Sequence record: MK295205
DNA length: 64,000 nt
Direction: 5' to 3' (one strand)
DNA from: Shigella phage vB_SflM_004
Shown: positions 25,492-45,888 of the stretch, piece after piece
Numbering within the stretch: the first letter of the stretch is position 1
Layout of the letters: every line of letters starts with the position of its first letter
Position numbers and translations under genes: made by a program
The notes under the pieces: model-generated
The model's input: only the letters and a program-made list of their open reading frames with translations
Told to the model about the DNA's origin: nothing
Databases searched by the model: none

Positions 25492-25568
25492 TGGTGTTGA
25501 AATGATGCTCATGGAAGAGTACCTTATACTATATATTGTATAGGAGACTTGTATGACTATTTCAGAAA

Positions 25569-25751
25569 TTGAAGTTCAACTGCAATGTGCTGGATATTCT
25601 CAAAGTGAGATTGAGGCTATGTGCATCATCATTTGCAGTAGCCATAAGCACCTCAAGCTTTCCAGAAATTCGTCTTAAGGTTGATATTTTTATTGCTGGA
25701 GGTAAGATTATCAAGGATAAGACAGGCTACCTTAAAGGTGAACGTCTATGA
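25569..25751 (+). CDS. hypothetical small protein
   Basis: 60-aa ORF (TTG start in track), stop overlaps next ATG (ATGA); C-terminal KIIKDKTGYLKGERL recurs in diverged copies at 40650 and 45830. Confidence 0.35.
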   Translation: MKFNCNVLDILKVRLRLCASSFAVAISTSSFPEIRLKVDIFIAGGKIIKDKTGYLKGERL

Positions 25752-25957
25752 GCCATCGTGGAAGAACTCATCTTGCCATGATGCAAGGTGCTTCAAAAGA
25801 GACTATCAAGAATCGGAAGAAAACTCTTTTTGACAGAATGAATAGACTCATTGATAATGCAAGCCTACCTAACTCTGAAAAGGTTTTCTTGAAAGGGAAT
25901 CTGAAGAGTATTGCACAGGAACTTATTGACATTGAATTTTGGAGACACCAAAAATGA
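25748..25957 (+). CDS. hypothetical small protein
   Basis: 69 aa; diverged copies of its 5' end with its RBS occur at 36520 and 40265. Confidence 0.45.
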   Translation: MSHRGRTHLAMMQGASKETIKNRKKTLFDRMNRLIDNASLPNSEKVFLKGNLKSIAQELIDIEFWRHQK

Positions 25958-26205
25958 CATACGCAGACGTTATTCAGCAACTTCACGACAACTGCTATAC
26001 CCCAGAGTTGATTCAGGAGATGTGTATTGTAGTGATGCCTAGCAAGTTCGTAAAAGCCTTTAGAAATGAAAATTTCACATCTGATGAGTTCTTTGAAATA
26101 AAAGACGGAAAGGTTGTATGTGAAATGGGTTACCCAATGGCTGCATGGTACAAGGGGGAACCTTGGCAGAAAACTGGATGGAGTATCTTTAATGAAACTT
26201 TATAG
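25954..26205 (+). CDS. hypothetical small protein
   Basis: ATG with GGAGACA SD, ATGA overlap with upstream stop; contains [11 protein letters not shown] segment repeated at 39573 and 40571. Confidence 0.45.
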   Translation: MTYADVIQQLHDNCYTPELIQEMCIVVMPSKFVKAFRNENFTSDEFFEIKDGKVVCEMGYPMAAWYKGEPWQKTGWSIFNETL

Positions 26206-26335
26206 CATTTGGGGAAGAGTTGGTGAAGGTTATGACTGGACTCTTCTTAAAACAAATGTTAAAAGTAACGAGATAGCTTACTACAAAATCTATTACCATA
26301 AAACTTTTAGAGAGGTAGAGTATCGTGAGCAATAA
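26192..26335 (+). CDS. hypothetical small protein
   Basis: internal ATG (MKLYSIWGRVGEGYDW) with GGATGGAG SD. Confidence 0.3.
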   Translation: MKLYSIWGRVGEGYDWTLLKTNVKSNEIAYYKIYYHKTFREVEYREQ

Positions 26336-26589
26336 AGAGCAAGAAGCTTTAGCAATCTTCAAGAGCGAAGACAAATCAATAGCTATTGGACTACGACCCC
26401 GAAACAGGGGTCAGACTATCAATGGTACTTAGATTTGTGTAAAATGAAATCTGTAGAGCCAGTTGATGAAACCCGATTCAAAGAACTGTATAATATCTGC
26501 CAAGAGGGTTATGAAGAACATTACGAAGGTTCTTTGAATCCTGTAAATTCAAAAGCTTCAGACTTATTTTACTTGGAAGTTTAGAGAGA

Positions 26590-26763
26590 GTAGTCCTACT
26601 GGTTGGATGTAACCCTTCTTATGAGAATAAGGATGCTTCTTACAGACTTCCTCCGGTATCACGAGGCAATAAGAACTTCAACTCTCGTGCCATTAGCAGG
26701 GATGTTATTGTAGTTCGCTGCCCAAATTCTCAAGACTACTACTTCTTACAAGTATGGAAAGAA
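26590..26763 (+). pseudogene. fragment of lipoprotein gene (paralog of 45889-46158) lacking a start codon
   Basis: translates to LLVGCNPSYENKDASY...IVVVRCPNSQ..., matching the 45889 lipoprotein; no in-frame start upstream. Confidence 0.4.
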
Positions 26764-26804
26764 TAGTCAGTCACATACTACTGTTTTTGATTGAGGATAT
26801 TAAT

Positions 26805-27011
26805 ATGCAGGTTCTTGTAAATTTTATCTATAAGTATGAAAACATCTTCAGTAACATGACTGTAGCACAACGTAATCCTGTTATACCACGAGAAGGAAAA
26901 AAGGCAGGAAATTATAGTTGGAACTACAAAGTTGAAGAAGTCAAACACAAATTCAAAGATGGTTATGACCACCAAGTTGTAAATGTGTATTTAAAAGGTA
27001 AGTGGCAATGA
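26805..27011 (+). CDS. hypothetical protein
   Basis: ATG (MQVLVNF) with GAGGAT SD. Confidence 0.4.
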   Translation: MQVLVNFIYKYENIFSNMTVAQRNPVIPREGKKAGNYSWNYKVEEVKHKFKDGYDHQVVNVYLKGKWQ

Positions 27012-27397
27012 GTGAAAAAAGGTTATTCAAAGAGTCCTACAGTAATCTGAAGATGGGTTATCAAGGCTACTCAATACCTTGGTATGAAGATAAGAAAAAA
27101 CAGTATTCAAACCCTTTTATATATCAACCTGTAAAACTCTCTGTACTGGAGTTTTGGCATGAAACTGGAGCTACGCCATACCAATTTGACAACATGGAAT
27201 ATGCGCGTATTTGTAAAAGTCTTGGTGCAAGACAAGTTGATAATATCATTGAACATTTGAAGGATTTGTATAAAGATTTTGCTGGATACTTATACGAGAA
27301 ACAGTTTGGGGAGTGCTTAAAATACCCAGATGGGCACTCGTTTTTCACAAAAGGTTGTCTTAATGGTAACATAAAAATTGCATACAAAGGCTTGTGA
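27008..27397 (+). CDS. hypothetical protein
   Basis: ATGA start/stop overlap with upstream ORF; 129 aa. Confidence 0.45.
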   Translation: MSEKRLFKESYSNLKMGYQGYSIPWYEDKKKQYSNPFIYQPVKLSVLEFWHETGATPYQFDNMEYARICKSLGARQVDNIIEHLKDLYKDFAGYLYEKQFGECLKYPDGHSFFTKGCLNGNIKIAYKGL

Positions 27398-27507
27398 GGC
27401 ACGTAATATGATTTTTATACTAGATTGAGACTACCATACCCAGATAGCTCCTTTTCCTTATCTAGCAATGCAATGACGCACTCTGGGAATATTGTTTCTG
27501 TTGAAAA

Positions 27508-28114
27508 ATGATAAACACAGATGGTCACAAGTCTGTTCAGTTATTGCTTGATGGTAAAGGCTACCAAGCTAACCGTCTAGCAATACTATATGTGGATGGA
27601 TACCTGCCTGATAAAACCTTAGAGCGTAATGCTGAACAGCAAGCTCCAGGTTGACCATAAGAATGGAGATGGTTGGGACAATAGGTCCAAGATAAGTCAT
27701 AAGAAATATTTGAAGTTCCCTGCTGACGCTCAACTTAAATTTAAGGGTTTCGTTGCAGGATTTCAAGAGATGCTGACTCAGAAAGCTTTTACAGCATATT
27801 CTCGTGAGAACACGGTATACAACATTCCTATAGAGTTGATTCCTGATGTTCTTCTTATGCTGAAACTGCACAAAGATGTTGAGGATTTCGATGGTGAGAT
27901 TTATGCTCATGGTTGGGACTTAGAAGATATTGTTTCGATGATTAAGAATGCTGACAATCCAGACCGTCACCTTCTTAAATTCTACTGGTATGATATCTGT
28001 GACAAGACTAAATCTTGGCCTGAGCGTCGTGAAGTTTCACCATTGTACAGCTTCACAAAACTCTTGCAATCGGTCAAGAAAGAAAACTCCTTCAACGAGT
28101 GTTGTCACCGTTAA
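27508..28114 (+). pseudogene. disrupted HNH-type endonuclease
   Basis: N-terminal fragment (GYQANRLAILYVDGYLPDKT) in one frame and HNH motif VDHKNGDGWDNR in another; junction coincides with a 25-bp fragment also present near 45760. Confidence 0.4.
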
Positions 28115-28137
28115 TACTCCGGGATTAAGCAAGATGC

Positions 28138-28147
28138 ACGGGGGGGG
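28138..28147. repeat. G10 homopolymer
   Basis: cacggggggggggtt; ten consecutive G in an otherwise AT-rich intergenic stretch. Confidence 0.8.
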
Positions 28148-28494
28148 GGTTAAATTAAAGTAACTGGTGTCAAAACTGATAAACGTGGTCATGGTAAGTT
28201 CGTTGTAGAGACTCTTCCTAACGTCCCTATCTGGGTTGCCAAAAGGTGTACAGAAGATAAGTAAAAGCCCTGAAGAGTTTATCGGGAAACCTTTAACTGT
28301 TCAGTTCCAGAAGATGAGTTTCGAGCAATGATACGTTTATTATCATTGGCTTACTTCACAAGTAAACTCTTAAGTATAACATACAAAGCCAAGGTAAAAA
28401 CTATCATCTTGGTATGTTTGACACACCGTAACTGACTTAGAAAATTTGGTGAGTATACTGAGCATCATAAACCAACGGGTACTCACCAACATCA

Positions 28495-28810
28495 CTTAAG
28501 AGTCTTTCTAAGGGGTTTTTAAGTGATGCTCGGTAAGGTTCGGTTCGGTTGGGTGTGGTATGGTGGTGTAAGGTGGTGTAAGGTGGTGTCAGGTGTAGTA
28601 TGGTGCGGTGAGGTTCGGTATGGGTAGTTAGTCTCAGCTACATTAAAATGAGACTTACCTTTTTAAAAGGTCTTTAATAGGGTCTTTTAATAAGGTGATG
28701 TGAGGTGGGGTCTGGTCTGGTTTGGTAAGGCGCGGTCTGGTTTGGTAAGGTAAGGCTCGGTAGGATGTATGGTAGTAGCCACGTTAAAAATCTACAGGCA
28801 TCTAAGAAAT
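28495..28810. repeat. array of two ~150-bp composite repeat units with GGT-periodic tracts
   Basis: units share an AT-rich leader (aaaaggtctttaa.agggtcttttaat), a 60-70 nt tract of GGT-containing ~7-nt periods and a 3' hairpin motif (agtctcagctacattaaaatgagact). Confidence 0.7.
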
Positions 28811-28853
28811 CTTCTGTTGAGGGTTCTTTACAAACAACTTAACAATTAACTAA

Positions 28854-29453
<600 letters not shown>

Positions 29454-29455
29454 TT

Positions 29456-29896
29456 ATGAATACAAAAGCATTAGCAGCAAAATTTAGTTACGGTGATACT
29501 GTATCACACTCTGAGATGGACACCTTCTTAGGTATTGTGAAGCCGACTTATCAAGGTGACATTGTTAAGTACGAAGATGAAATGAAAGCTTACGCACTTA
29601 CACGTCTAAACCGACTTGAGAAGTTTATTGAGAAGCTTCTTAAAGAAGAGAAGATTTATCTGGTCACTTCAATGGGTGTTGGTTATCGTGTGGTGGAACC
29701 TAAGCATCAAGCAACTATTGCAAAACGTAAAATGTCTGGTAAGATTGGTCGTGCTTTAAAACAAGCCACTCAAGCGATTGAGAATGTGAACACTATGGTA
29801 CTTAGCCATCAAGAACGTTCACGACTGATTGAACAGCAAAACCACTTAGCTGCTATGAAAGCTAACATTAATAAGCAACGTAGAAAACCTTTCTAA
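29456..29896 (+). CDS. hypothetical protein
   Basis: 146 aa, basic C-terminus; followed by a terminator. Confidence 0.5.
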   Translation: MNTKALAAKFSYGDTVSHSEMDTFLGIVKPTYQGDIVKYEDEMKAYALTRLNRLEKFIEKLLKEEKIYLVTSMGVGYRVVEPKHQATIAKRKMSGKIGRALKQATQAIENVNTMVLSHQERSRLIEQQNHLAAMKANINKQRRKPF

Positions 29897-29906
29897 GTTG
29901 ACTAGG

Positions 29907-29931
29907 TAGCCTCTTCGGAGGCTCCTTTTTA
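29907..29931 (+). terminator. rho-independent terminator
   Basis: hairpin GTAGCCTC-TTCG-GAGGCTCC followed by TTTTT. Confidence 0.65.
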
Positions 29932-30355
29932 AAAGGTCTTTAAACAGGGTCTTTTAATGAGGTAGTGTTCGGTCTGGTTAGGTCTGGTCTAGTTCGGTTT
30001 GGCAAGGTGGGGTTAGGTATGGGTAGTTAATCGGAGCTACATAAAAATTCGATTGCACCACTTAAGAGTCTTTAAATTATATTCGAAAGAGTATCTCATA
30101 GGGTTTTTAAGTGTTGTTTGGTATGGTACGGTTCAGTGGTGTATGGTTTGGTTCGGTGGTGTAAGGTGTGGTCCGGTAAGGTATGGGTAGTTAGTCTCAG
30201 CTACATTAAAATGAGACTTATCTTTTTAAAAGGTCTTTAAACAGGGTCTTTTAATGAGGCTGTGCTCGGTACGATTCGGTTGGGTCAGGTAAGGTTGGCG
30301 AGGTCAGGTCGGGTGCGGAAGGATGGCAGTAGCCTTATAAAAAATCTGCCAAATA
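29926..30355. repeat. array of three ~130-160-bp composite repeat units with GGT-periodic tracts
   Basis: same unit architecture as 28495-28810; both flavours of leader and 3' motif present. Confidence 0.7.
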
Positions 30356-30369
30356 AGCTATAAAATCTG

Positions 30370-30398
30370 TTGACAAGTCAGGTGTTATAGCTTATTTT
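30370..30398 (+). promoter_or_regulatory. sigma70-like promoter
   Basis: TTGACA, 17-nt spacer, TATTTT; about 45 nt upstream of the 30443 ORF. Confidence 0.4.
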
Positions 30399-30442
30399 TA
30401 TACTCAATGTAATACAAAATTTAATATAACTTTGAGGTCATT

Positions 30443-30826
30443 ATGAAAAAGATTTTATTAGCTTCTGCAATGGTTATGGCAATGAATTTACCAGTCAAGG
30501 CTATGAAGATGCCTGAAGCAAACTTTAACGGTGTTGCTTTAGAATCTTGTAAGATTGTACAGAAAATTGCTTCAAATGCTGGAGAGTTGACGAAACCATT
30601 ATCTGCTCCAACTGTTCAAGAAATGACTGATAAGATGGTTGACTACAACTACCATTTTATGGGAGATTACTATGACAGATTGGCAGATGAGATGGTTACC
30701 CAGAATGTTGATGTTCTTGACAGCAAAGGTATCGAAGCTGTAGAAGATGTGAAAGATAATTTTATGCGTGAGTCTTTCAAAGGTGTCCAATATTTTATTG
30801 AAAATCGTAACTGCATAGGTTTATAA
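30443..30826 (+). CDS. secreted/periplasmic protein of unknown function
   Basis: N-terminal signal peptide MKKILLASAMVMAMNLPVKA; TGAGGT SD; a start-less ~65-codon ORF follows in the +1 frame. Confidence 0.5.
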   Translation: MKKILLASAMVMAMNLPVKAMKMPEANFNGVALESCKIVQKIASNAGELTKPLSAPTVQEMTDKMVDYNYHFMGDYYDRLADEMVTQNVDVLDSKGIEAVEDVKDNFMRESFKGVQYFIENRNCIGL

Positions 30827-31026
30827 TCATGAAGAAGAACATCCCAGAAGCGGTTATGGTAAGATAATTGACGATACAGACGGCTTTACAGTTTACAGAG
30901 TTTGGGCTAATGATTTTTCAACCGTTGTAGAGTCTTTAGATAACTACATCAACGGGACTCGTGAAAACGTCAGAGCAACTAATCTTGATTCGTTAATAGA
31001 CACTTCTCGAAAGCGGAGAAAGAAAG

Positions 31027-31326
31027 ATGAATGAAGTCTTTGACCCTTATGCACCTCAAGATTCTTGGGAGGCTGATAGTGAGGCTGAAATGGAGAGTTA
31101 TATCTATCCAATGGATATTGAAGAGATGAAGGACTTTGTAGCCTTCCGATTCTCTAAAGAGGTTGAGAATCAGAAACTTTCTCAGGCTCAGGCAGCAATT
31201 ATTTGTGAAATCTCACAGAGTCGTGTTTCAAATATCATTAACGACCCTCAAAAGATTTCTTTAGAGTACATGCTTAATGCTTGTGCAAAACTTGGTGTAA
31301 ACTTTAACTTAAGGCTGGCAGATTAA
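31027..31326 (+). CDS. putative HTH DNA-binding protein
   Basis: LSQAQAAIICEISQSRVSNIIN resembles an XRE/Cro-type helix-turn-helix. Confidence 0.45.
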   Translation: MNEVFDPYAPQDSWEADSEAEMESYIYPMDIEEMKDFVAFRFSKEVENQKLSQAQAAIICEISQSRVSNIINDPQKISLEYMLNACAKLGVNFNLRLAD

Positions 31327-31452
31327 TATGAAACGTGAAAATGCAATCTTTAACGATAACTTTGCAATTGGCTTCTATGGTAAACCAACTCCGGCAGAGA
31401 AGCTTTATGGTAATGCAATTCTGGAGACCTTGAAAGAGGTTTAAGAGCTGGT

Positions 31453-31683
31453 ATGAGGTACATTGATGCAAACCGTGTAAGAGGTTATATGGCAATTGGC
31501 TCTGCAATCTCTAACATTAAGCTGGAGACTACCAGTGCTAAGAAGGTACGAGACCACTTCATCAAAGAGTTGTCAGAGATTGTGGATGGTGTTGATATCA
31601 AGGCTGTCTGGTTAGATGTTGAAGGTCACAACTACACCACTTTTGTATTTAAAAATGAGGATATCAAATGTCTCTTCCCTTAA
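31453..31683 (+). CDS. hypothetical protein
   Basis: 76-aa ORF; a 38-codon ORF at about 31327-31443 might be its frameshifted N-terminus. Confidence 0.35.
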   Translation: MRYIDANRVRGYMAIGSAISNIKLETTSAKKVRDHFIKELSEIVDGVDIKAVWLDVEGHNYTTFVFKNEDIKCLFP

Positions 31684-32060
31684 AACTTGATTTATACTTT
31701 GGTTACAGTGTATTACAGGGTAGCATACTTTCACTACCAAAGTCAGATTACCGTTGTGATTTAGGTTCTGTGAAACGTGCATCACACATGAACAGCAACA
31801 TTTTAGGCTTGCAGACACTTCACAGGTGGCTTGAGGAAGATGGGCATTTGAATGAGTATCTTCACCAACTCGAACTAGCCAAAGAAGAAGGGCATATGGG
31901 TTGGGATTTACTACCCCATCTGTACAAACCTGCAAGCCCTATGGAGATACGCTATAACGAACAAGCGATTGATAGTTATAACAAATATAATATAACTATT
32001 GGCTTAAAATCTTGGTTAGATTATGACAAATCATTATACAGACCATTGGAAAGCGTGTAG
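31668..32060 (+). CDS. hypothetical protein
   Basis: 130 aa; GAGGA SD upstream of ATG. Confidence 0.45.
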   Translation: MSLPLKLDLYFGYSVLQGSILSLPKSDYRCDLGSVKRASHMNSNILGLQTLHRWLEEDGHLNEYLHQLELAKEEGHMGWDLLPHLYKPASPMEIRYNEQAIDSYNKYNITIGLKSWLDYDKSLYRPLESV

Positions 32061-32212
32061 CAAAAGGTATTGCTTATGATGAAAAGGTTGACTGGAATAC
32101 ACAAAAGTGTATAAAATTCTTCAAGTACGATAATGACAAAGATACTTTTGTAGAGGTTTAACATGAAAATTGGAATTACCCTTTGCCAGCCCGAAACAGG
32201 GGTCTTAACATT

Positions 32213-32494
32213 ATGAAAGCTACAAATCATACTGAGAAGACATTCTTGATTGATACAAACTATGATGCAGGAACTATTGAGTTCATTGATGAAGACACTG
32301 CTGATTCCTTGTGTGTTCTTCCTGCTCACTTATTTACTCCAGAGCTACGTGAGAGTCGTTCTATTGAAGTTAATCTTGAGCCAAGTATTGAACTGTACTC
32401 AGATACACAGTATCCAAGAAGTTTTAAAGGATTGGCAGACCTCCACATAGTAGTAGGATGGTTATTGGAAGCCAAGCCGGAGGTGGTCATGTAG
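32213..32494 (+). CDS. hypothetical protein
   Basis: internal ATG (MKATNH) with AGGGG SD; upstream hairpin cccgaaacaggggtc. Confidence 0.4.
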   Translation: MKATNHTEKTFLIDTNYDAGTIEFIDEDTADSLCVLPAHLFTPELRESRSIEVNLEPSIELYSDTQYPRSFKGLADLHIVVGWLLEAKPEVVM

Positions 32495-32661
32495 TAACTG
32501 CTGAGTGTGAACAAGGCACTATCAAGCTGACAGGTGATTTTGGTTCTATGAGTTTCTTAGACTTTGTTCCAAAACACTTTGAAGACTTCCTGTCAAGTGA
32601 AGTTGATGACCTTGATTTCATACTAAAATTTGAACGCACTTTTAAGGTAAACAAAAAATGA
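32458..32661 (+). CDS. hypothetical protein
   Basis: 67-aa ORF; followed by a 41-codon Cys-rich ORF (about 32659-32784). Confidence 0.35.
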   Translation: MVIGSQAGGGHVVTAECEQGTIKLTGDFGSMSFLDFVPKHFEDFLSSEVDDLDFILKFERTFKVNKK

Positions 32662-32926
32662 AAATCTTAAGCGGAGTATCACAGTGTTACATGAATGATG
32701 GTGAGCCAGTTAAATGCTGCCATTGTGGAGGTGAGAACTTCCAAGGTGAAGTTTCAGAGATTGTCTCTGGCAATATCAATTAAGCGCACAAGGTCTGGTG
32801 TGTATATGCACACATTTTATCTTTTTGGGCTTATGGAAGTTATGAACCACAACCCCACCTTATTTACCATCCAAACAGGATTGTGAAGCGTGTTCTGAAC
32901 TGGTTCATTATCAAAGGATTTACAAA

Positions 32927-33366
32927 ATGATTAAGTTAATTTTTGCAAGTGGTATTAACGGGGAGTTTGGCACAGCTACTGGAATGCCTTGGCCTCGTAA
33001 TAAACAGATTTTAGGAAGCAGACTGTTAACCAGTTAGTCTTGATGGGTAGCGAAACTTGGAAGACTCTTGGGAGCAAGCCTTTGCCAAACCGTGAGAACA
33101 TTGTCTTGACAAACTCTCTTGACTTTTATGGTCTGGATTTTAAAGATGACTCTCATTGTAAAGCAAGAGTTAAGCCTGAAGCTTTTGGGGCTTTCCTGAA
33201 GTATATTGATAGCTCTATTGATGAAGATGTTTTAGTAATCGGTGGAGCCAATATCTTAATCTCAGCTTTGCCGTATGCTGACGTAGTTTTCCACAGCGTC
33301 ATTCAGGAAGTTACAGGACAGGTAATCACCGAATTGCTTGGTGGGTTTCTTCCAGTACTTGTATGA
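32927..33366 (+). pseudogene. dihydrofolate reductase, frameshifted
   Basis: N-terminus MIKLIFASGINGEFGTATGMPWPRNKQ in one frame stops at 33035; DHFR continues in the next frame from 33004 (DFRKQTVNQLVLMGSETWKTLGSKPLPNRENIVLT...VIGGANIL...LPYAD); one-base shift near 33000-33008. Confidence 0.6.
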
Positions 33367-33461
33367 CACAGATTTATTTGCTAAAGTACAGTCCAAACCT
33401 CTGGATGACAGGTAAGTGGCCTGACAAACACATTGACCACAAAGAAGAGGGCTTTTCTAAT

Positions 33462-34350
33462 ATGTCACAAGCAGATGTAAGCTACAAAGCTATTTTAAAC
33501 CATGTTTTATCAGTTGGTGAGTTGCGTAAAACCAGAACTGGCTCAGTGATTTCTACCTTTGCTCCACCTGAGTTCCGTTTTGATATGCGTAGTGGATTTC
33601 CATTAATCACCTCAAAACAAACGTTTATGCGTCAAGTCCTCGGTGAAGCATTATGGTTTATGAACGGTGAAAACCAACTAGGCCATTTGCGTTACAGAAC
33701 TTGGGGGGAGAATGACGGAGAGCGTTGGACTATCTGGACAGATGATTTTAAACGTTGGTTGAAAACAACCTATGCTACAGAGAATGATTGGCTGGAGGAC
33801 GCTGGAGGAAGAATCTATGGAGTCCAATGGAGAGCCTACGAAGGTCATGGTGGAGTTGTTGGAGATGGTTTGAATAACGCTTGGGACAATCTAAGAGAGG
33901 CCACAAAAGAACAGAACATGTCTAATAACGCATGGAATGCAGCAGATATATCAAGTAACTCTATGGCATTAGCACCTTGCCATGTACTTTTTCAGATTTA
34001 CATCTCGAACACTAATGAGGTAGATTTGAAATGGTATCAGCGCTCTTGTGATACGTTCTTAGGATTACCATTTAACATTGCTTCCTATGCCTTTATCTTG
34101 GAAGTGTTGTGTAAACTGACGGGGTATACACCGCGATATCTGATTGGTACTTATGGTGATACTCAAATCTATCAGAACCATATGTCGCAGGTTTTTCAGC
34201 TTCTTGGTAATGGAGACAACCTAGAACATCAATCAAGATTTGAAGTCTCTTGAAGACTTGAGACATATGACAGCAGATGACTTCCTAGGTGGGTTGAAAG
34301 GGTATAAACATGCTGGTAAGATTGAAGCACCTTTATCAGTAGGTAAGTAA
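33462..34350 (+). CDS. thymidylate synthase (apparent frameshift near 3' end)
   Basis: ThyA motifs RTGSVISTFAP, YGVQWRAY, catalytic ALAPCH, YQRSCDTFLGLPFNIASYA, GDTQIYQNH; conserved C-terminus (DDFLGGLKGYKHAGKIEAPLSV) is in a different frame after about 34240. Confidence 0.65.
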
Positions 34351-34447
34351 AAACTTAAAAGGTACAAGTAGAAGCAAGTCTGGTAAGTTGTTCTGTAATT
34401 GCTTGCAAAGCTGATATGGATAGCCCAGATTAACCATAACGGCAAGA

Positions 34448-34735
34448 CTATACATATAGGAACATACACAACTTTGCGTTCTCACCCTTAACATTCTCTA
34501 GCTGAACTTTCTGGTTCTCCATCCCTAATTGTAGGAGCTTCATATCAGATTGTAAATCACGAATAGCTGAATAGTTACCTTTTGAGTAACTATCCAACTG
34601 TTGTAACTTTGTGTTGATAGAAACTTCTTGCTTTCCGTCAGAGACCTGCATCGTAGTGTACATACCAATTACACTGAAAATACCTACAACGATTGCACCA
34701 ATATTGTTCTTGAAAGCATCTTCTAACCACTTCAT
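34448..34735 (-). CDS. hypothetical membrane protein
   Basis: 95 aa with one hydrophobic helix (IGAIVVGIFSVIGMY). Confidence 0.4.
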   Translation of the reverse strand: MKWLEDAFKNNIGAIVVGIFSVIGMYTTMQVSDGKQEVSINTKLQQLDSYSKGNYSAIRDLQSDMKLLQLGMENQKVQLENVKGENAKLCMFLYV

Positions 34736-34740
34736 TATTT

Positions 34741-34913
34741 CTCACCTTTAAAAGCCTTTTCCAAGGTATCAACAAATTCATCATCAATAGGTGTATCTGT
34801 TTTACTCGCAAGGTATCTTGCAAGCTTAAAGAACACTTTTTCAATCATGTATTCACTGAGAAGAGGAAGAAGAAGCCCATAAAGTTTCATGAGGATTGCT
34901 AGAATGGTCGGCA
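34741..34913 (-). CDS. small hydrophobic protein (below track size cut-off)
   Basis: 57-codon ORF MPTILAILMKLYGLLLPLL... read by eye; stop adjacent to next ATG. Confidence 0.3.
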
Positions 34914-34963
34914 TTTAATCACCTTACTTCTTGAGCCAAGATGGTGAGAATACCTATTAAGAA

Positions 34964-34992
34964 ATATTAACACCATCTTGTCAGTTAGTCAA
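34964..34992 (-). promoter_or_regulatory. sigma70-like promoter (leftward)
   Basis: minus-strand TTGACT, 17-nt spacer, TAATAT. Confidence 0.5.
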
Positions 34993-35000
34993 CAAGGTAA

Positions 35001-35957
35001 TTAAGCAGTTTTTACCCAAGCCATTAATTTAATAAAGGCGTTAGTAACATCAAATGCTGCACCAGAACCTGTACCACCAGTTGTACCACTTAATGTGTGG
35101 GCATGAGCACCAATTGTCACAGTGTGTGTATGGTCACCTACCCAACTTGTTCTCCCTGTCCAAGTTCTTGATGCGTAGAAGTTAACTGGTGTACCATAAG
35201 TGAACTGTGAACCAGTATAACCTCTAGAGGCTTGCGATGACATCTTACTACCACCTGCACCAGTCCCGTTCCATCTTACTGTGAAGCTGCTATTTGCAAC
35301 ATTATGGGCGTGACCACCCGCACCAGAGATTTCCATGTTACCTCTGTCATGGTCGTGAGCACCTTGAGCGTCTGTGTACTTAGTACCATAATCAAAGGTA
35401 GTGGTTGTTCCAGAGAAGCTGTGAGTATGACTTGGAAGATGACCTACAGCAATACTCTTAGAGTCTGAGCCACCTACAGAACCAACATCCTCACCAGTTG
35501 AAGAGGCAATTCTAATAGTTCTGAACTGACCATTTGATAGGTAAGCCCAAGTAGTTCCTGCAAATGCTGTATTAGGGTTTACATTCGATGCAAAGAACGT
35601 TACCATACCAACTGGATAGATTTTGTTAAGGTCTGTTGAGTTAGAAATAGCTGTTGCAATCTTCTGGTCAGTCTCTGCTTTAGTGTAAGCTCCAACATCT
35701 CCAGCAGAAGGTTTCTGTGCTTCCGTGAAAGTGTTGTAATCAATTACCACATAACCATCAACCGCATTAGCTGGCTTAGTAGATGACACAGTAGGAGCAG
35801 AATGGACAGTAATAACTGCACCATTGTTGTAGTTAAATTTAAACTGTGCAGTCGGTGTAGATGTACAAACTCCACGCATCATAGTTATCTCCACCAACTG
35901 AAACAGTACATACATCAACACCAACACCACTATCTGTACTTCTGTAAAGAACAGCAT
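35001..35957 (-). CDS. tail fibre protein, C-terminal His-rich domain
   Basis: repeated HxH motifs (HTHSFSG, HDHDRG, HAHNV, GDHTHTVTIGAHAHTLSG) as in long/short tail-fibre tips; N-terminal part of track ORF looks like out-of-frame read-in. Confidence 0.6.
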   Translation of the reverse strand: MLFFTEVQIVVLVLMYVLFQLVEITMMRGVCTSTPTAQFKFNYNNGAVITVHSAPTVSSTKPANAVDGYVVIDYNTFTEAQKPSAGDVGAYTKAETDQKIATAISNSTDLNKIYPVGMVTFFASNVNPNTAFAGTTWAYLSNGQFRTIRIASSTGEDVGSVGGSDSKSIAVGHLPSHTHSFSGTTTTFDYGTKYTDAQGAHDHDRGNMEISGAGGHAHNVANSSFTVRWNGTGAGGSKMSSQASRGYTGSQFTYGTPVNFYASRTWTGRTSWVGDHTHTVTIGAHAHTLSGTTGGTGSGAAFDVTNAFIKLMAWVKTA

Positions 35958-37553
35958 TTAGACCCGATGGGTTTGCATTTCCACTTCTCAATACTAGTTC
36001 ATTTTTGCAAAACTAAGTTGAACCAACGTTGAAACCTGTACCACCATAGAGTCTTAAAGTTGCTGTTGATGGTGTTTGTGGCATTGTTACAGTAGCAATT
36101 TTCACCCAACCACTGTCATAAGTTGTTGCATTCATAGCAGTAGCTCTTGAGAATACAGTATTAGCAACACTTTGTGTGTAGTACCTTGCATCAAAGTTAG
36201 ATACATCTGTAGGGATAACTTGACCTTCAACTCTTAAAGGTTTATTGAGATAAGCTACATCCCTTAACTCTAGATATGTATTCACTGACAAGGTGCTCAG
36301 GGAAGAGTACCTTAGTCTGCTACCTTCACCGTTACCAACATACCAACGTCGCATCAGTACTATCTTTTGCAATAACCCCGTTGCTATTCATTGGCTGGGT
36401 AGCTGTCCCACTTTGCAATGTGAAAGCAGCATCTGTAGTAACAATAGTTTGAGCACCTGTGAAAGTGTTTGCAGAGTTATTTCTTGCAAGACTACTTAAT
36501 AAAGAGCTTACAATATCTTATATAGGAGGACTTATGAGCCACCGTGGAAGAACCCATGCAGCGATGATGAAAGGTGCTTCAAAGGAGACACCAGATGAGT
36601 AGAGTCTCATAGTTGCACCTGTCATCTGGTTAAACAAGTTAACATCCTGCTTAGTCCCATCAGGTTGACCAAGATACCAAGACTCTGAACCAGAACCTGC
36701 GTAGGCTTGAACAAATACTGCACCGTTTGCTGTAGCTGGTTTCAATCTAAGCAAAGACCCATCAGAAATAATTGTCTGATAGTTTGTGAAGTTGTTTGCA
36801 CCTGAGAAGGTATTATTTTCAGTTAGTCTTGCAAATCTTTGGTCAGCAGCTATCAAAAATCGTAAGCAGAAGTTGTTTGAGAGAATGAACAGGTTAATTG
36901 ACAATTCATCTCTTTCAGGTTCTGAGAAGGTTTTTAACTAGGGAACCGGTCTTGTTGTTGTAGAAAATAACATCGTCACTTCCGAATCATTACCTACATA
37001 CCACCTATTAGCTCCAGTACTATCCTGGCTACAATAGCGGAGTATGCCTCACTTGCACCAGCAGGGGTCTTCAGTGTCATAGCTTCACCATTTGCTTGAA
37101 TAACTTGTTGGGAGGTAAAGATGTTATTTGCAGCTAGTCTTGAGTATCTTGCATCATTTTCCTCATTTGTTCTCATACCTAATTCATTAGGAGATGGTTT
37201 ATTAAGTGTGTGATAAACTGTTGCAGACCTTGAAGCATCTGCAATAGTTAGTCTAAGACCGTTTGAGTTAATTTTAAATCTTGAAAGGTAATCTGAAAAG
37301 CATTGCACAAGAACTTGTAGAATAAATCTTTTCCACCGTAAGTTAACTTAACAATACCCAGATTACCTGTCATATTCCCGCCAGCTAATTGCAAGAATCT
37401 TTCAAGTCTGAATGAAGCTAAGAAATTTGCATAGGTCATTTTACGGTCTTCATCACCTAGCATATCAGACCTTTTAATTACTCTCAAATGTAATAGGTCG
37501 TCTGAGCGAACTGTATCAATTGTGTTTAGTTCACTTAGTTTGTATTCAGCCAT
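35958..37553 (-). pseudogene. tail fibre gene N-terminal and central portions, fragmented
   Basis: N-terminus MAEYKLSELNTIDTV...LAGGNMTGNLGIVKL at 37553, then pieces in different frames (36994-37308, 36518-36904, 36013-36372) interleaved with three foreign fragments at about 36520-36595, 36840-36935, 37275-37315. Confidence 0.5.
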
Positions 37554-37598
37554 TTATCAATCCTCTTTATAGGGGCTGTGTAGCCCCTTTATAAATTT

Positions 37599-38788
37599 TT
37601 AAGCAACTCTCTTCCACACATAAACAACATAAGATGGTTGTTCAACACTGAAAGCTTGTCCACCACCAGATGCACCAGTTGTACCTGAGTGAGTGTGCTC
37701 AGAAGATTGAACTGTCACAGTACCACTGTGTGTATGTGAACCAATACCGACTGTGTGGCTGTGAGCACCAATACCGACTGTGTGGCTGTGGTCACCGGAT
37801 GCACCAGATGTAACATCTCCAATCGTCACAACGTGAGAGTGGTCACCTGCCCCATAAGTTGGTTGTGACGCATTACCAACACCTGCATCAGCCGTTGCCG
37901 TAATAGCATTCACACCACGTCCACCAACGTTCTGTACAAGAGCTTGGTGAGTGTGATTGCCAGAGTTGTTTGTATTCCTTGAACCATAGTCAAAAGTACT
38001 GGTATACTTAGTTCCATAGTCAAAGTCACTTGTAGATTTTGTACCATAATCAAACACACTCGTTGTCTTATTTCCGTGGTCGAAACTTGAAGCTGACGCA
38101 CTATTACCATGCGTGTGTCCACCACCAGTTAACAATACAGAGTGTGTGTGACTTGGAATGTTATTTTGAGAAAGTGCTACAGATGCACTACCAAAATTAG
38201 TTTCAACTGGTCTTGTGTCAGAATCATAACCAACTAATGCTCTACCTTTAGAGACAAGTTCCCAAGTACCACCACAAAGTAAATATGTAGATGGGTTTGC
38301 AGGGTTAACTGACAAATGGATAGTACCAATTGGGTAACTATTCTGGATAGCTCTATAAAGAGCATTCACAGCTTTTGCAGTAGCATACTTATCAGCATCT
38401 TCAGAGTAAGAGTTTGAATAAGTCCAGTATTGAATATTGGAGACATCTACCTGAATCTTGTTAGTATTGTGAGGGTTGTTCTTATCATTGATGTGGTTCT
38501 GAATAAGAGTATTAACTTCATCACTTGATAGAATATTAAGGTTCTGCCTAGCCTCTTCAACACTAACCACGTCTGACAAGTTATTAGCAGCCATTAATTG
38601 GAGTGCGTTAACAACATTACCAAGTTCTACGTGAACCTTTGTAACGCCGTGTGGGTTATTTCTTAAAGATGCGTGTGGAGCAAGTAATTGCTCAAGTGTG
38701 CAACGCTTATCCTCAAAAAAATGACACTTGTGTCAATAGGTAAAGAGGCTTGAGGCAATGCACTAATTTGAATTTCACCAACTGCCAT
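37599..38788 (-). CDS. tail fibre protein (frameshift at A7 tract)
   Basis: N-terminus from ATG at 38788 (MAVGEIQISALPQASLPIDTSVIF) continues in +1 frame after plus-strand A7 run at 38715-38721 into ...NNLSDVVSVEEARQNLN... and His-rich C-terminus; track reports only 37599-38594. Confidence 0.6.
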
Positions 38789-38790
38789 TA

Positions 38791-39189
38791 TTAGCTCCCT
38801 TTATATTCGTATGTGTAAAGGTTAGTCGTGCTAGTGGGTGCAGTTCCTGTTACTGTGTCAATTAATTCCCAACCATTGGAAACTAAATCAGGTTGCTCCG
38901 TAGCAAATGAACGAACCTCTCCAACCGTACCATTTACTTTGTTAAGCAAATAGTTAATAATATAGTTAAACCACTGGCGACCCATAGGCTCTCCCCTTAA
39001 TAGGCCAGTGGCTTGAATTTCTGGAGGTGGTAATACTTTAAGCTGGTTACTCCCTTCTTGTTGTGATTTATCTTTTCTACCTTTGACGATTTGAGCAACT
39101 TCTGCCATAATACCATAATCGCCACCAGTTACCATTTCTTTACCAGCAATAAAATAGTCACTGCTATTGTTTGTCTTGCTGACTTTCAT
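38791..39189 (-). CDS. hypothetical structural protein
   Basis: 132-aa ORF directly upstream of tail fibre gene. Confidence 0.4.
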
Positions 39190-39601
39190 ATAATCTTTAC
39201 TGGTACTTCCACCAGTTTTGTCAACTCTAAAGTAACCATCCCTAATACCAGCATCTGCAAAGCTACCAAGCTTGTTAGCCTCCAGAGAACCACCTGTGTT
39301 GTTCGTAATAAGACCCTTGTTAGTGTCTGTAACAAACCAGTTGTTGTTCTCATCAGTAATTGCCAGACGTTATTCAGCAACTTCTACAGGAGTCCACGCA
39401 GTACCATTTAGCGTAATATCTCTTATGATAACTGCTACACTAATAGTTGCCAGAGTTAATTCAGGAGATGTGTATGCTGTATCTACAACGTTGTTTCGAG
39501 TGTTTACACGAACAACAATACCACCCGTCATAGGTGTGATATGTTCAAAGATTTGACTAAACGTTGCATTGTAGTGATGCCTAGCAAGTTCGTAAAAGCC
39601 T

Positions 39602-40174
39602 TTAACAGTGACACTTTAAGGTCTGCACCAAATGCACGAATACCAGCAGGTTTTGTGTCCCAGATTGCTTGTGCGATGTTAACATTCTTATTGTTGAAAG
39701 AAGAAGCCCATAAAGCTTACTGTGAAGCCCATCATAATTTGTAGTCTCTGTGTCGTTCTCTACACCAGAAGCATCAGATACACCTTGAACCCTCTTGACA
39801 GCAGCTACAATAGCATCTAAAGTACCTACACCAGTAACGGCTAAGGATTCTAGATAACGCTGTCTAAGTTCTGTATCAGTTTCTTCGTTACGACCTGCTG
39901 TTAAATCGTATCTGTTAAATACCCCATCAAGACCATCTACAGTCGTTTCAATCTCAATAAAAACTCCACGGAGAGTTTGCAAAACTCCAGTTTCTTCAGC
40001 TACAACGTCACTAATTGATACAATCTTTGTAAATGTTAGGAAGGTCGTTGCAGTTACAACCATAGGGTTTGTTCTTGCAATGATATCTCCAGTATCTTTA
40101 TAGATTCTCAGAAGAGAACCGTCATTGATGACTTCAGCTTTTGCTGCAATACCACCATTGATAGAGTCTGCCAA
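39602..40174 (-). CDS. putative tail/baseplate protein, 3' end disrupted
   Basis: 190-aa ORF; C-terminal ~45 codons read through an inserted fragment (39565-39740) homologous to the 25954 gene. Confidence 0.35.
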
Positions 40175-40244
40175 GTGTTGTAACAGAGTCGTAATGGTAT
40201 CTGAGCTTGTAGGATGGTAAGAGTACTAAGTTGACAAGGTGCCC

Positions 40245-40750
40245 TTATACAATATCTTATATAGGAGGGCTTATGAGCCACCGTGGAAGAACCCATGCAG
40301 CGATGATGAAAGGTGCTTCAAAGGAGACTATCAAGAATCGTAAGCAGAAGTATTTCAAATGTGGTGTCATCTGTTGTTACTTTATTCTTTTGAGATGTTT
40401 GAGAGAATGAACAGGCTAATTGACAATTCATCTCTTTCAGGTTCTGAGAAGGTTTTCTTGAAAGGTAATCTGAAAAGCATTGCACAAGAACTTATTGACA
40501 TTGAGTATTGGAGACATCAAAAATGACACTTGCAGACGTTATTCAGCTCCAGAGTTAATTCAGGAATGTCCATTGTAGTCATGCCTAGCAAGTTCGTAAA
40601 AACCTTTAACAACGACGCTTTAAGGTCTACACACATCCTTATCGTGATTGCAAAAGACCGTACTGGAGTACTCAAAGGTGAACGTATTGATATTCTGGAG
40701 TCTGGGGAAGTGTTGGTAAAGGTTTTGACTGGACACTTCTTCGTGATTCC
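40245..40750. repeat. degraded mosaic copy of the small-gene cassette at 25700-26260
   Basis: colinear ~85 percent identical segments including the RBS and start of the 25748 gene, the SEKVFLKGNLKSIAQELIDIE segment, VVMPSKFVK segment and KDRTGVLKGERI segment, with internal indels. Confidence 0.7.
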
Positions 40751-40852
40751 TTAAAAGTTCTGGTATAAAAACACAAAAGGGGAAGACCTTTTACAGTCTC
40801 CCCCTTATTAGGATTTGTCAAACGTTAAACGTAGTGATTGTTGAAGTGTAGT

Positions 40853-41257
40853 CTAACTTCTCACAACCAAAAATCCAAGTTTTAGAGTTCTGGTCACGTC
40901 CAAGTTCAATCTGTGGAAGCTCTTGCAACCAAGCATTATTACCAGAACTGAACCGGATGGGTCATAAATTACGAAGTTAGATGAAATGTCTTCTTCAAGT
41001 TCCATGTCATCTTGTTTAGCTTGAATTGCAGAAAGCATCTGGTTAGATAGAGAAGTCTGCATTAGCTCAATCTCAATCGTACCTGTTTTATCTGCGTTTC
41101 TTGTCAGAGCTACTTGACCACCTGCACCTACAACTGGCGTAACAAGTGGAGAAGTTCTCTGAAGACGTAAGAATGAGTCTGGTGCAAAACCTTCAATGGC
41201 AATGCCATTCCAGCTACAAACTACATCTTTAGGGGAATATTGCTGATACATAGCCAT
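40853..41257 (-). CDS. hypothetical structural protein
   Basis: 134-aa ORF in tail module; 3' end possibly frameshifted. Confidence 0.4.
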   Translation of the reverse strand: MAMYQQYSPKDVVCSWNGIAIEGFAPDSFLRLQRTSPLVTPVVGAGGQVALTRNADKTGTIEIELMQTSLSNQMLSAIQAKQDDMELEEDISSNFVIYDPSGSVLVIMLGCKSFHRLNLDVTRTLKLGFLVVRS

Positions 41258-41272
41258 TCCTATTTACTCCTA

Positions 41273-41581
41273 TTATTCGTAAGCCACTGTGCCTTTCAAG
41301 TCCACATCCAAGATTGCCCCTGCTAAGATACCGTGGAAGGTAATGTCTTTCAGGATACGAGCTTTCTTATCTGCAAGTGATACTTGTGAGGCTTTAGGAA
41401 CAGTAACGGTATAAGTAGACAAAAAGTTTCTGTTAACTGCTCTCTGAAGAGATGTTTCAATGACCTGACGAACACGAGTAATACCTGTATCATCATAAGT
41501 AATCTTACCACCCTTCTGATTAATTAGCAAGTCTCTTAGAGAAGTTTTCAAGTCTGATTCAAGCCAATCGACATCACTCAT
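41273..41581 (-). CDS. hypothetical structural protein
   Basis: 102-aa ORF. Confidence 0.4.
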   Translation of the reverse strand: MSDVDWLESDLKTSLRDLLINQKGGKITYDDTGITRVRQVIETSLQRAVNRNFLSTYTVTVPKASQVSLADKKARILKDITFHGILAGAILDVDLKGTVAYE

Positions 41582-41584
41582 TAT

Positions 41585-41929
41585 TTAAAAACATACACCA
41601 CCAGAAGTGATACCTCTACGCACTACGAGAGGTAGACTATCGTGAACAATAAGGTTACAGCTACGTGCATCAAGTGCTGACTTCTGAATGCTTGTCAGAG
41701 GTCTCTTGTTAGCTGGCTGCATAGATGCTGCTACACCAGTTAACTGAGCATTACCCCAAGCAATAGAACCTGCATCGTATGGAGCACCATAAGCAATGTA
41801 AGCCATTTCTGGGTAGTCAAAGCTTGCTGTGTGATGCCATAGACATACTGTACGAGTGTACTTACTCTTAGAGAGTTGTGTGAAAGCAATGGTTGCAGAA
41901 GCCAGTTCAGTTCCTTGCAGAGCTTTCAT
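41585..41929 (-). CDS. hypothetical structural protein
   Basis: 114-aa ORF. Confidence 0.4.
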   Translation of the reverse strand: MKALQGTELASATIAFTQLSKSKYTRTVCLWHHTASFDYPEMAYIAYGAPYDAGSIAWGNAQLTGVAASMQPANKRPLTSIQKSALDARSCNLIVHDSLPLVVRRGITSGGVCF

Positions 41930-42129
41930 GTCATTGCTTGCCTTGGAGTAATTTTTCTATCTGGCTGTAATCCCTCATTGCAGTAACGAACTGTGAAGTT
42001 CTGTCTTCAGTTGCAATAAAGTACCAATCAGTTGAGTACGTTTCAATTGCAGCCAGAGCTACAGAAGCACTATCAGCAGTTGTTGCAGAGATTGAAAGAG
42101 TCTGTGCAGTTGTTGTAACTCTTACGAGG

Positions 42130-42375
42130 ACAAAAACGCTTCTTATAGCCTCCCACCAGAGATGCAAGATTGCAGAGTCTATAAGTTACATGGTGATGCC
42201 ATAAGCAATAGCCCCTGTATCAAGCACCGAGACATTGTTGTTGTCAGGTGTCCAAACTGTGGTACTCATCTCTAACCTTTGTTTTAGCTCAAGCATAATG
42301 CTGTGAGCACCTTTACCATTTACAGTAATTAATACTGGAATCTGAAAAGCAATTCAAACAACAACATCTTACACG
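42130..42375. repeat. diverged fragment of the lipoprotein gene (45990-46090) between structural genes
   Basis: shared strings cctcccaccagagatgcaagattgcagagt and ttacatggtgatgc.ataagca. Confidence 0.6.
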
Positions 42376-42381
42376 AATTTA

Positions 42382-42669
42382 TCAAGAACCCAACCATAAG
42401 GTGTGACAGCATCTTGACAGTAAACTGTAATAAACGGTTGGTCTGGTTGCTATGGCAAAAATGATTCTTGTATCTGTTAGTCTGATACCTTCAGGTAAAA
42501 CAATCTGTGTACCATTCTTTACAGAACCCTTAATATAAGGTTGAATATTACCTTTGCAGGGAATGTCAACAATATCTTCAGAAGCTACCCAATCACCATC
42601 GTTATTGTAATAACCATCTTCAGATACTTTGCGTTTCACTACAAAGCTGTGTCTGTTTAAGAGTCTCAT
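42382..42669 (-). CDS. hypothetical head-tail protein, 3' end disrupted
   Basis: 95-aa ORF whose last ~20 codons run into the inserted fragment. Confidence 0.35.
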   Translation of the reverse strand: MRLLNRHSFVVKRKVSEDGYYNNDGDWVASEDIVDIPCKGNIQPYIKGSVKNGTQIVLPEGIRLTDTRIIFAIATRPTVYYSLLSRCCHTLWLGS

Positions 42670-42953
42670 TTTTTAATACCTTTCTTAGTAGAAATTTTAT
42701 AAGCAAGGTTATCTCGTAAATCCCCAGTTTCTACAAGAGGTGCGTTGAAACCTTTTTGTTTAATTGTAGAAGGAGCGTTAGGAGGGAGGATAGCAGTATT
42801 ACCAAAGCCTCTCTTAATTGCCTTTTGAGCATTCTTTGCAAATGCCTCTAAAGTTTCTGAGGGGTCTGTATTAAGACTATTTAGTTGCTTATAGAGATTC
42901 TTCTTAGTCTGCTCTAACAAGGTCTGTCTGTGTAACATCATAGTAATTAGCAA
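42666..42953 (-). CDS. hypothetical structural protein
   Basis: 95-aa ORF. Confidence 0.4.
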   Translation of the reverse strand: MLITMMLHRQTLLEQTKKNLYKQLNSLNTDPSETLEAFAKNAQKAIKRGFGNTAILPPNAPSTIKQKGFNAPLVETGDLRDNLAYKISTKKGIKK

Positions 42954-42971
42954 GGATTACGACGACGCATG

Positions 42972-43283
42972 TCAATCACACACTGCATAAGGGAGGCCAC
43001 TAACAGAGCTTTTAACTAGGTCGTCATATACAGCTTTAAGAGATTTGAATCTGGAAGAGTTACGTAAGTAAACACCACCAACCTTCTCATCTCCCATCTT
43101 GGCTACTTGAAAGAGTAAATATTTAAGAGCTTTGATGGCTGCTTTCTTTTCATCCTTTCCAGATTCTTGGTAGAACCACTCTAGCACCGATTGGTCAATG
43201 AGGATTTCACTGTTATTGAGTGAGGTGCTCAAGATGGAAGTCCTAGTAAAAGGGTTATTAGCGGGGTCGCCTGTATAACACAT
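42972..43283 (-). CDS. hypothetical structural protein
   Basis: 103-aa ORF downstream of capsid gene. Confidence 0.4.
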   Translation of the reverse strand: MCYTGDPANNPFTRTSILSTSLNNSEILIDQSVLEWFYQESGKDEKKAAIKALKYLLFQVAKMGDEKVGGVYLRNSSRFKSLKAVYDDLVKSSVSGLPYAVCD

Positions 43284-43304
43284 TATAACCCTCCTTTCAA
43301 GTTA

Positions 43305-44447: not shown

Positions 44448-44459
44448 TATTTGTGTTCC

Positions 44460-45407: not shown

Positions 45408-45418
45408 GCTAAGAGAAA

Positions 45419-45610
45419 ATGAACAAAGAAGATAAGCATAAAAATGCTGTACGAACTCCTGATGGAAAGGTTCAATCCTTCATCCTGACAGTTGGTGGAA
45501 AACCGTTTCGTTGCCACTGCGGAGCAAACTGTTTTCATAAACCAGATAAAAATGATTTAGAGCTTTACGCATGTAATGCTTGCAATACTTGGTATCACTC
45601 AGAGGAATAA
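45419..45610 (+). CDS. hypothetical Cys-rich small protein
   Basis: 63 aa, CHCGANCF...CNACNTW; its 3' part recurs at 49420-49470. Confidence 0.35.
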   Translation: MNKEDKHKNAVRTPDGKVQSFILTVGGKPFRCHCGANCFHKPDKNDLELYACNACNTWYHSEE

Positions 45611-45885: not shown

Positions 45886-45888
45886 GCT

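Follow-up and report, generated by a model that had tools for sequence, protein, structure and literature searches.

The frameshifts in the adjacent genes for dihydrofolate reductase (DHFR) and thymidylate synthase (ThyA) of Shigella phage vB_SflM_004 are very probably an in-silico artefact of sequence record MK295205, in which, judging from sequence comparison, at least two Ounavirinae genomes would have been merged along the path of an alignment; an alignment-based merge is the most likely type. The region is not biology, but a database error rather than recoding, decay or random read error. The window, that is the whole stretch of 64,000 nt analyzed here, is Ounavirinae (Felix O1-like) phage sequence, and its ORFs, truncated ones included, are exact matches to deposited MK295205 proteins. 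We refer to the Sf17-like background of the region as thread A, and to the foreign pieces that interrupt it as the HNH thread or thread B.

With the DHFR of phage Sf17 as query, three-frame translation and tblastn located aa 1-27 at 32927-33007 (coordinate mod 3 = 2), aa 31-140 in the adjacent frame at 33007-33336 (mod 3 = 1), and aa 144-181 at 33344-33457, back in the first frame (mod 3 = 2) and interrupted by three in-frame stops. The first-pass annotation had described DHFR as lying in two adjacent frames, shifted near 33000-33008. The shift is there, but it is not the single one supposed: the gene shows two frame changes (33004/5 and ~33343), in addition to the three in-frame stops and a scrambled C-terminus. 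Alignment to Sf17 reveals a loss of 10 nt at 33004/5 and of 2 nt at ~33342, and aa 28-30 and 141-143 are physically missing by tblastn. No continuous ORF runs across the whole ~160-aa domain; the one-ORF match to Pfam DHFR_1 (PF00186) covers profile positions 41-118 of 159 only, the domain being distributed over three frame segments. The gene is composed as follows:

32927..33003, + strand: DHFR segment 1 (aa 1-27), Sf17-like thread A; tblastn 27/27 identity to Sf17, DNA identical to Sf17
33004..33016, + strand: HNH-thread piece, Meda 28828-28840; 13 nt for 23 nt of DHFR; MAFFT E-INS-i places 12/12 nt here
33017..33311, + strand: DHFR segment 2 (~aa 35-132), thread A, shifted frame; tblastn, DHFR_1 E=6.3e-12 in the ORF 33040-33363
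33312..33342, + strand: HNH-thread piece, Meda 28841-28871; 31 nt for 33 nt; simulation places 31/31 nt here
33343..33399, + strand: DHFR segment 3 (aa 144-162), thread A, first frame again; tblastn
33400..33445, + strand: HNH-thread piece, Meda 28872-28917, encoding WMTGKWPDKHIDHK; equal-length overwrite of the DHFR C-terminus; simulation 44/46 nt
33446..33460, + strand: native DHFR 3' end with TAA stop (33458-33460), thread A; alignment to Sf17

Each defect can be assigned to one of these pieces. The first frameshift (-10 nt) results from the shorter block at 33004..33016 standing in for 23 nt and the second (-2 nt) from that at 33312..33342 standing in for 33, while the three stops in the DHFR frame arise because the piece at 33400..33445 overwrites the C-terminus.

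The situation in ThyA is similar. Three-frame translation and tblastn with the Sf17 protein placed aa 1-250 at 33462-34211 (mod 3 = 0) and aa 260-299 at 34228-34347 (mod 3 = 1), with a stop in the former frame at 34251-34253, and the alignment shows an 11-nt loss at ~34227, within 34212-34232. Additionally, residues 134-156 (33860-33927) have been replaced in frame by the HNH-motif sequence GDGLNNAWDNLREATKEQNMSNN, a 68-nt swap that removes the conserved DRYMLVNAWN stretch of Sf17 and gives rise to a sub-threshold Pfam HNH_3 match inside the ThyA ORF (aa 134-153). Relative to Sf17, aa 134-156 and 251-259 are physically missing by tblastn. The ORF matches Pfam Thymidylat_synt (PF00303) with E=1.2e-57, the match ending at profile position 223 of 266; the catalytic Cys motif ALAPCH is in frame with the N-terminus, but the segment before AWN and the C-terminal 40 aa are not found together in one frame. 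The earlier reading of ThyA as intact through ALAPCH is therefore correct for the reading frame and incorrect for the content, aa 134-156 being foreign by alignment and tblastn, and the displacement of the conserved C-terminus into another frame was rightly recognized (aa 260-299). The segments are:

33462..33859, + strand: ThyA segment 1 (aa 1-133), thread A; tblastn, Pfam Thymidylat_synt E=1.2e-57
33860..33927, + strand: HNH-thread piece, Meda 28918-28985, HNH motif GDGLNNAWDNLREATKEQNMSN; 68/68 identical, simulation 68/68 nt
33928..34211, + strand: ThyA segment 2 (aa 157-250, ALAPCH included), thread A; alignment, tblastn
34212..34232, + strand: HNH-thread piece, Meda 28986-29006; 21/21 identical, 21 nt for 32 nt, simulation 0/21
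34233..34350, + strand: ThyA segment 3 (aa 260-299 and stop), thread A, shifted frame; tblastn 39/40 identity

The ThyA frameshift (-11 nt) is accounted for by the last of these pieces, which puts 21 nt in place of 32. Since tblastn with the intact Sf17 DHFR and ThyA detects homology in the second frames, the frame changes cannot be set aside as a lack of homology there. The chimeric ThyA ORF encodes the 296-aa protein AZV01467.1, which forms a singleton cluster among ~15 billion proteins in an exact-sequence look-up, and a chimeric 32-mer junction (33847-33878) had 0 matches in IMG/VR, JGI metagenomes and GTDB genomes.

Adjacent frames with homology resuming after each shift are what one would expect from read-level sequencing error, or from programmed ribosomal frameshifting that restores the proteins. 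Both are vanishingly unlikely here. None of the DHFR/ThyA shift points lies at a homopolymer or slippery run, as had been noted already for the DHFR shift, and the losses of 10, 2 and 11 nt come with block substitutions. Conserved DHFR and ThyA residues are physically missing and there is no Rfam element; programmed frameshifting is further contradicted by the 10-11 nt lost and by the relatives, which are unshifted. An Rfam search of 31000-37000 gave no intron or other RNA match. A group I intron or intein, as in T4 td, was considered and rejected, the region being 23 nt shorter than in relatives and free of Rfam matches in 31000-37000.

What the lesions consist of became apparent when window positions 32000-35300 were aligned to Sf17 and KMM2. 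Long runs nearly identical to Sf17 are broken by patches of 13-68 nt at approximately random-level identity, several of them with deletions. Outside the patches 2510 of 2553 positions match Sf17 (98.3%), with 43 mismatches and 0 indels; inside them there are 236 matches and 172 mismatches (48% identity), as well as all 81 gap columns. All DHFR/ThyA defects, including the three frameshifts, fall within patches. The patch pieces are not insertions: each takes the place of thread A bases and has at most the length of the stretch lost. At the junctions, threads A and B switch cleanly, with 0-5 nt in common. Comparison with other members of the subfamily gives the same picture: the DHFR (frd)-ThyA (td/thyA) pairs of Ounavirinae such as Sf17 gp57/gp56 and Meda 050/051 have the same genes, order and junction as the window, in which the DHFR TAA is followed directly by the ThyA ATG, and the window is 98-100% identical to the Sf17 DHFR/ThyA region outside the patches. 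In the relatives DHFR (546 nt) and ThyA (900 nt) are intact, whereas the window has 23 nt missing and five foreign blocks.

These observations bear on the proposal of the first-pass annotation that two damaged neighbors might signify gene decay. On such a reading, DHFR and ThyA would be undergoing genuine pseudogenisation in an actual phage that depends on its host for folate and dTMP. Although two adjacent genes are indeed both disrupted, this explanation is very improbable. Decay would leave scattered substitutions and indels also outside the lesions, but there we find 1.7% substitutions and no indels, every gap column lying inside a patch; the patches all derive from one donor, and the lesions are blocks that are identical to successive stretches of a different gene. 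Neighboring genes (holin, tail fibre, capsid) are damaged likewise, and both DHFR and ThyA are intact in at least 33 relatives, in line with their conservation across Felixounavirus genomes (PMC8300805).

The donor is a single homing endonuclease gene. The 68-nt ThyA patch is 100% identical to the HNH endonuclease gene downstream of DNA polymerase in Meda and phiWec172, and in other phages it occurs only within the HNH gene at this location. By short-word BLAST, every patch in 31449-36314 is a piece of one HNH gene, gene 038 of Salmonella phage Meda. The pieces tile Meda 28644-29199 consecutively and in order, with overlaps of 0-3 nt and one 15-nt piece as the sole loss, so that the gene is cut into ~19 pieces over 4.9 kb with 28-560 nt of unrelated sequence intervening. 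Besides those within DHFR and ThyA, the following pieces were recognized:

31449..31468, + strand: first HNH-thread piece, Meda 28644-28663 (DNA polymerase end, ribosome-binding site, HNH start codon); short-word BLAST
31575..31587, + strand: HNH-thread piece, Meda 28664-28676; short-word BLAST
31782..31795, + strand: HNH-thread piece, Meda 28677-28690; short-word BLAST
32004..32027, + strand: HNH-thread piece, Meda 28691-28714; short-word BLAST
32190..32211, + strand: HNH-thread piece, Meda 28715-28736, 16 nt of the Sf17 gp59 homologue removed; alignment, BLAST
32429..32482, + strand: HNH-thread piece, Meda 28737-28790; alignment, BLAST
32777..32814, + strand: HNH-thread piece, Meda 28791-28828; alignment, BLAST
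34349..34388, + strand: HNH-thread piece, Meda 29006-29045, ThyA/holin intergenic terminator region overwritten; alignment, BLAST
34417..34472, + strand: HNH-thread piece, Meda 29045-29100, holin gene 3' end overwritten; alignment, BLAST
34866..34884, + strand: HNH-thread piece, Meda 29102-29120, 15-nt loss; alignment, BLAST
35275..35294, + strand: HNH-thread piece, Meda 29121-29140, within the tail-fibre gene; short-word BLAST
35867..35876, + strand: probable HNH-thread piece, 10 nt of Meda 29141-29155, the weakest of all; piece joining, collinear matching
36004..36021, + strand: HNH-thread piece, Meda 29156-29173, HNH stop codon included; short-word BLAST
36286..36314, + strand: thread piece just 3' of the HNH gene, Meda 29171-29199; short-word BLAST

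Of the 556 nt of the donor, 431 lie in collinear exact matches of 13 nt or more, compared to a maximum of 14 nt in 200 shuffles and 0 for the reversed and reverse-complemented sequences. The concatenated pieces yield an intact ORF of 171 codons, 164/171 aa identical to Meda_038, with a Pfam HNH_3 match (E=1.3e-14, 54 bits vs a cut-off of 24.8) and an AP2 domain. This score above the gathering threshold is reached solely by the in-silico concatenation, and the window DNA holds no contiguous translatable ORF for this HNH_3/AP2 protein. The pieces are 95-100% identical to the free-standing HNH_3/AP2 homing endonuclease of Felixounavirus (Meda_038; phiWec172 BDU11679.1) and rebuild its whole ORF, but what is a gene 3' of DNA polymerase in those phages is present in the window as scattered pieces and no gene. 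At the native site, after the DNA polymerase stop, the HNH gene is missing from the window. In the holin, whose 3' end is overwritten, 95 aa are found here vs 121 aa in relatives.

A homing endonuclease as donor brings to mind ectopic gene conversion or template switching, in which repair of an endonuclease-induced break copied bits of the HNH gene into DHFR and ThyA. The Ounavirinae are rich in homing endonucleases, the window itself carries intact HNH_3 and GIY-YIG genes, and the junctions show short microhomologies. We nevertheless regard this as highly improbable: it needs ~19 independent events that use each donor nucleotide once and in order over 4.9 kb, the ordered pattern would have to extend over 20 kb more, the native site lacks the donor gene, and the resulting genome would be without essential genes. 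It is equally hard to credit that the interleaving exists physically in phage DNA, with the HNH gene running as ~19 ordered fragments through the DHFR, ThyA, holin and tail-fibre genes, either left there by a series of templated repairs or to be put back together as a scrambled gene. The micronuclei of ciliates such as Oxytricha (MDS/IES) do hold the segments of a gene in order with other sequence between them; there, the segments are inserted and pointer repeats mark the junctions. In contrast to the ciliate arrangement, the pieces in the window overwrite, there are no pointers (overlaps of 0-3 nt), and the host genes lose bases. We know of no unscrambling machinery in phages.

The positions of the patches point instead to an alignment program. 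In a simulation, the sole input to the aligners was the HNH thread of Meda, anchored at its ends, plus the Sf17 region. MAFFT E-INS-i split the thread into 19 blocks; 350 of 476 nt (11 of the 15 pieces) came to lie at the Sf17 coordinates matching the window, the pieces at 33004, 33312, 33400 and 33860 among them, while shuffled threads had 0-48 nt placed in the same simulation. The foreign blocks hence lie largely where a global aligner puts them, well above the null. A ClustalW-like Needleman-Wunsch scoring placed 259/476 nt. The placements were not reproduced by MAFFT G-INS-i, L-INS-i or most Needleman-Wunsch settings (20-170/476 nt), and 4 of the 15 pieces were not reproduced by E-INS-i either, among them the piece at 34212-34232 behind the ThyA frameshift. 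Given the match with E-INS-i and ClustalW-like scoring, the patch positions are therefore those that an alignment program picks.

We suggest the following scenario. From the end of DNA polymerase onward, the record would represent several genomes merged rather than one DNA molecule. Thread A is Mooglevirus-like and near-identical to Sf17 in this region, and would have normal DHFR and ThyA genes; thread B is Felixounavirus-like and would carry, directly after DNA polymerase, an HNH homing-endonuclease gene that thread A does not have. A global aligner would stretch the non-homologous part of thread B across thread A as blocks of 13-85 nt, and in the merged output each block of thread B would overwrite the bases of thread A aligned to it, with short gaps in thread B becoming deletions and long gaps being filled from thread A. 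Four blocks in DHFR/ThyA, three of which alter the length (-10, -2 and -11 nt) while the other swaps 68 nt in frame, would produce exactly the defects observed. The merging would have been done by some program or by hand, and the source of thread A may have been either a phage purified along with the isolate or a reference genome. The in-silico merge is favored because the donor is used once, in order and without loss, because the opposite bases are replaced, and because gaps occur only in the shorter partner. Two points run counter to the simplest version of this scenario: a rule by which thread B overrides and gaps are filled with thread A explains neither the deletions at short gaps nor the internal skips of 0.3-11 kb in thread A. 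An origin from a generative model was also considered and rejected in favor of alignment, as the patch starts follow no fixed grid and the thread resumes exactly after hundreds of bases; the provenance from a GenBank record makes the idea moot in any case. The systematic error suggested as the other reading of the two damaged genes is thus right in kind, but not as a read-level error, since ordered foreign HNH pieces overwrite genes over ~35 kb.

Alternatively, SOAPdenovo itself could have made the chimera without any merge of alignments, through de Bruijn graph or scaffolding errors on a lysate of two or three related phages. MK295205 is a record of 85,887 bp, sequenced on Illumina HiSeq at 4,115x and assembled with SOAPdenovo v2.04 at default settings (PMC7925395); the high coverage, the default settings and an isolation without pre-enrichment (PMC7925395) would suit such an origin, as would the contribution of at least two genera to the sequence. 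We consider it unlikely all the same. De Bruijn graph assemblers join sequences only via k-mer overlap, and the junction microhomology of just 0-5 nt is far under the overlap needed; short-insert paired-end links cannot spread a 2.4-kb thread in order over 26 kb; and the patch positions coincide with the optimum of a MAFFT alignment. The record resembles chimeric or mis-merged assemblies in several respects, with clean parental switches, lost aligned bases, non-viable content, duplicated rIIA/rIIB and positions at the aligner optimum; the difference is that the tool or step is undocumented here. To our knowledge, no mis-merged assembly with interleaving this fine-grained has been described. 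The published method mentions SOAPdenovo alone and describes no aligning or merging of sequences (PMC7925395).

The DHFR/ThyA region is a small part of a much larger zone, delimited by sequence comparison:

24900..60147, no strand: whole chimeric zone, a Mooglevirus-like thread with skips and at least two dispersed Felixounavirus threads

From position 1 to ~24.6 kb the window is contiguous and Felixounavirus-like, 91-97% identical to Meda with long ORFs intact. An allele switch from Meda-like to Sf17-like (Mooglevirus) sequence occurs inside the DNA polymerase gene (24400-25000); it adjoins window position 24932, where Meda has a 274-nt insertion splitting its polymerase gene, and may mark either natural recombination or a further boundary of the merge. 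The first Felixounavirus thread corresponds to Meda 28644 to 31038 and continues in pieces over window positions 31449-57959, well past the HNH gene. A second, near-identical Felixounavirus thread (Meda 29103 to 30276) is overlaid on 39698-45825, a part that covers the baseplate, sheath, capsid and protease region. Its contiguous block at 40225-40701 duplicates pieces at 36509-39628 and 45829-45884, and the duplicated pieces were detected as repeat families D3, D4, D7, D8 and D15. The Mooglevirus thread is collinear with Sf17 between the pieces, but with several skips of 0.3-11 kb, located at 40237-40736, 42086-42208, 42948/42949, 44209-44212, 45409-46172 and 60147/60148. The skips remove the terminase, portal, tape-measure and whole tRNA regions, and truncate the capsid, protease, sheath, baseplate J and gp23 genes.

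Correspondingly, ORFs of at least 150 aa cover 0.81 of 1-25.5 kb vs 0.32 of 25.5-60.1 kb, ARAGORN predicted 0 tRNAs in the 64 kb, and no terminase, portal or tape-measure gene was found within the window. No viable Felix O1-like phage could have the gene content of the window, in which terminase, portal, tape-measure and tRNA genes are absent and several structural genes are truncated.

MK295205 thus appears to be chimeric from ~25 kb of the window onward. The paper describing vB_SflM_004 reports 0 tRNAs, two rIIA/rIIB pairs and a ~10 kb 'deletion' (PMC7925395); these oddities, together with the low-identity capsid and tail proteins, are probably products of assembly. The proteins that form singleton clusters, AZV01467.1 ('thymidylate synthase'), AZV01474.1 ('tail fiber') and AZV01487.1 ('head maturation protease'), and other proteins unique to the record look like assembly products as well. 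The interleaving has no biological significance. Its value lies in curation: MK295205 should be flagged as chimeric over the interval that corresponds to ~24.9-60.1 kb of the window, and any other anomalies that genome scans pick up there should be disregarded.

A number of further features of the window were observed. The natural-looking part carries intact homing-endonuclease genes on the - strand at 2467-2958, 14894-15391 and 15381-15887, two of them HNH_3+AP2 and one SegE-like GIY-YIG; neither Meda nor Sf17 has the stretch 15405-15895, which is inserted in the window. In the terminal part (60148-64000), rIIB (60498-61619) is protein-identical to that of Mooglevirus Moogle, and the adjacent rIIA (61709-64000) has 95% DNA identity to Felixounavirus Meda. 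As another rIIA/rIIB pair is reported from an earlier position in the record (PMC7925395), this end is probably a duplicated wrap-around of mixed origin. A 64-kb circle, suggested by the near-join of the window end and start (Meda 2325 | 2555), was rejected, as two rIIA/rIIB pairs fit better and the 85.9-kb record ends in the second rIIA.

Repeated sequences are also present. A conserved element of ~32-90 nt (CATTTTCAGATTCTCCAGTTTAGGATTGTT...) occurs at least seven times between the small ORFs of 57568-60137; the same family occurs in Sf17 (83.4-88.5 kb) and Meda (73-78.6 kb), and the element is probably a natural early-gene promoter/RBS repeat of these phages. A 50-nt tandem duplication in perfect register, 96% identical, is located at 51819-51918 (repeat family D18). 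The intergenic region that follows the DNA ligase gene holds a 75-125-nt repeat (families D1 and D6) in three copies, at 28553-30296; these repeats are likely natural, matching Sf17 repeats at 46.0-47.6 kb.
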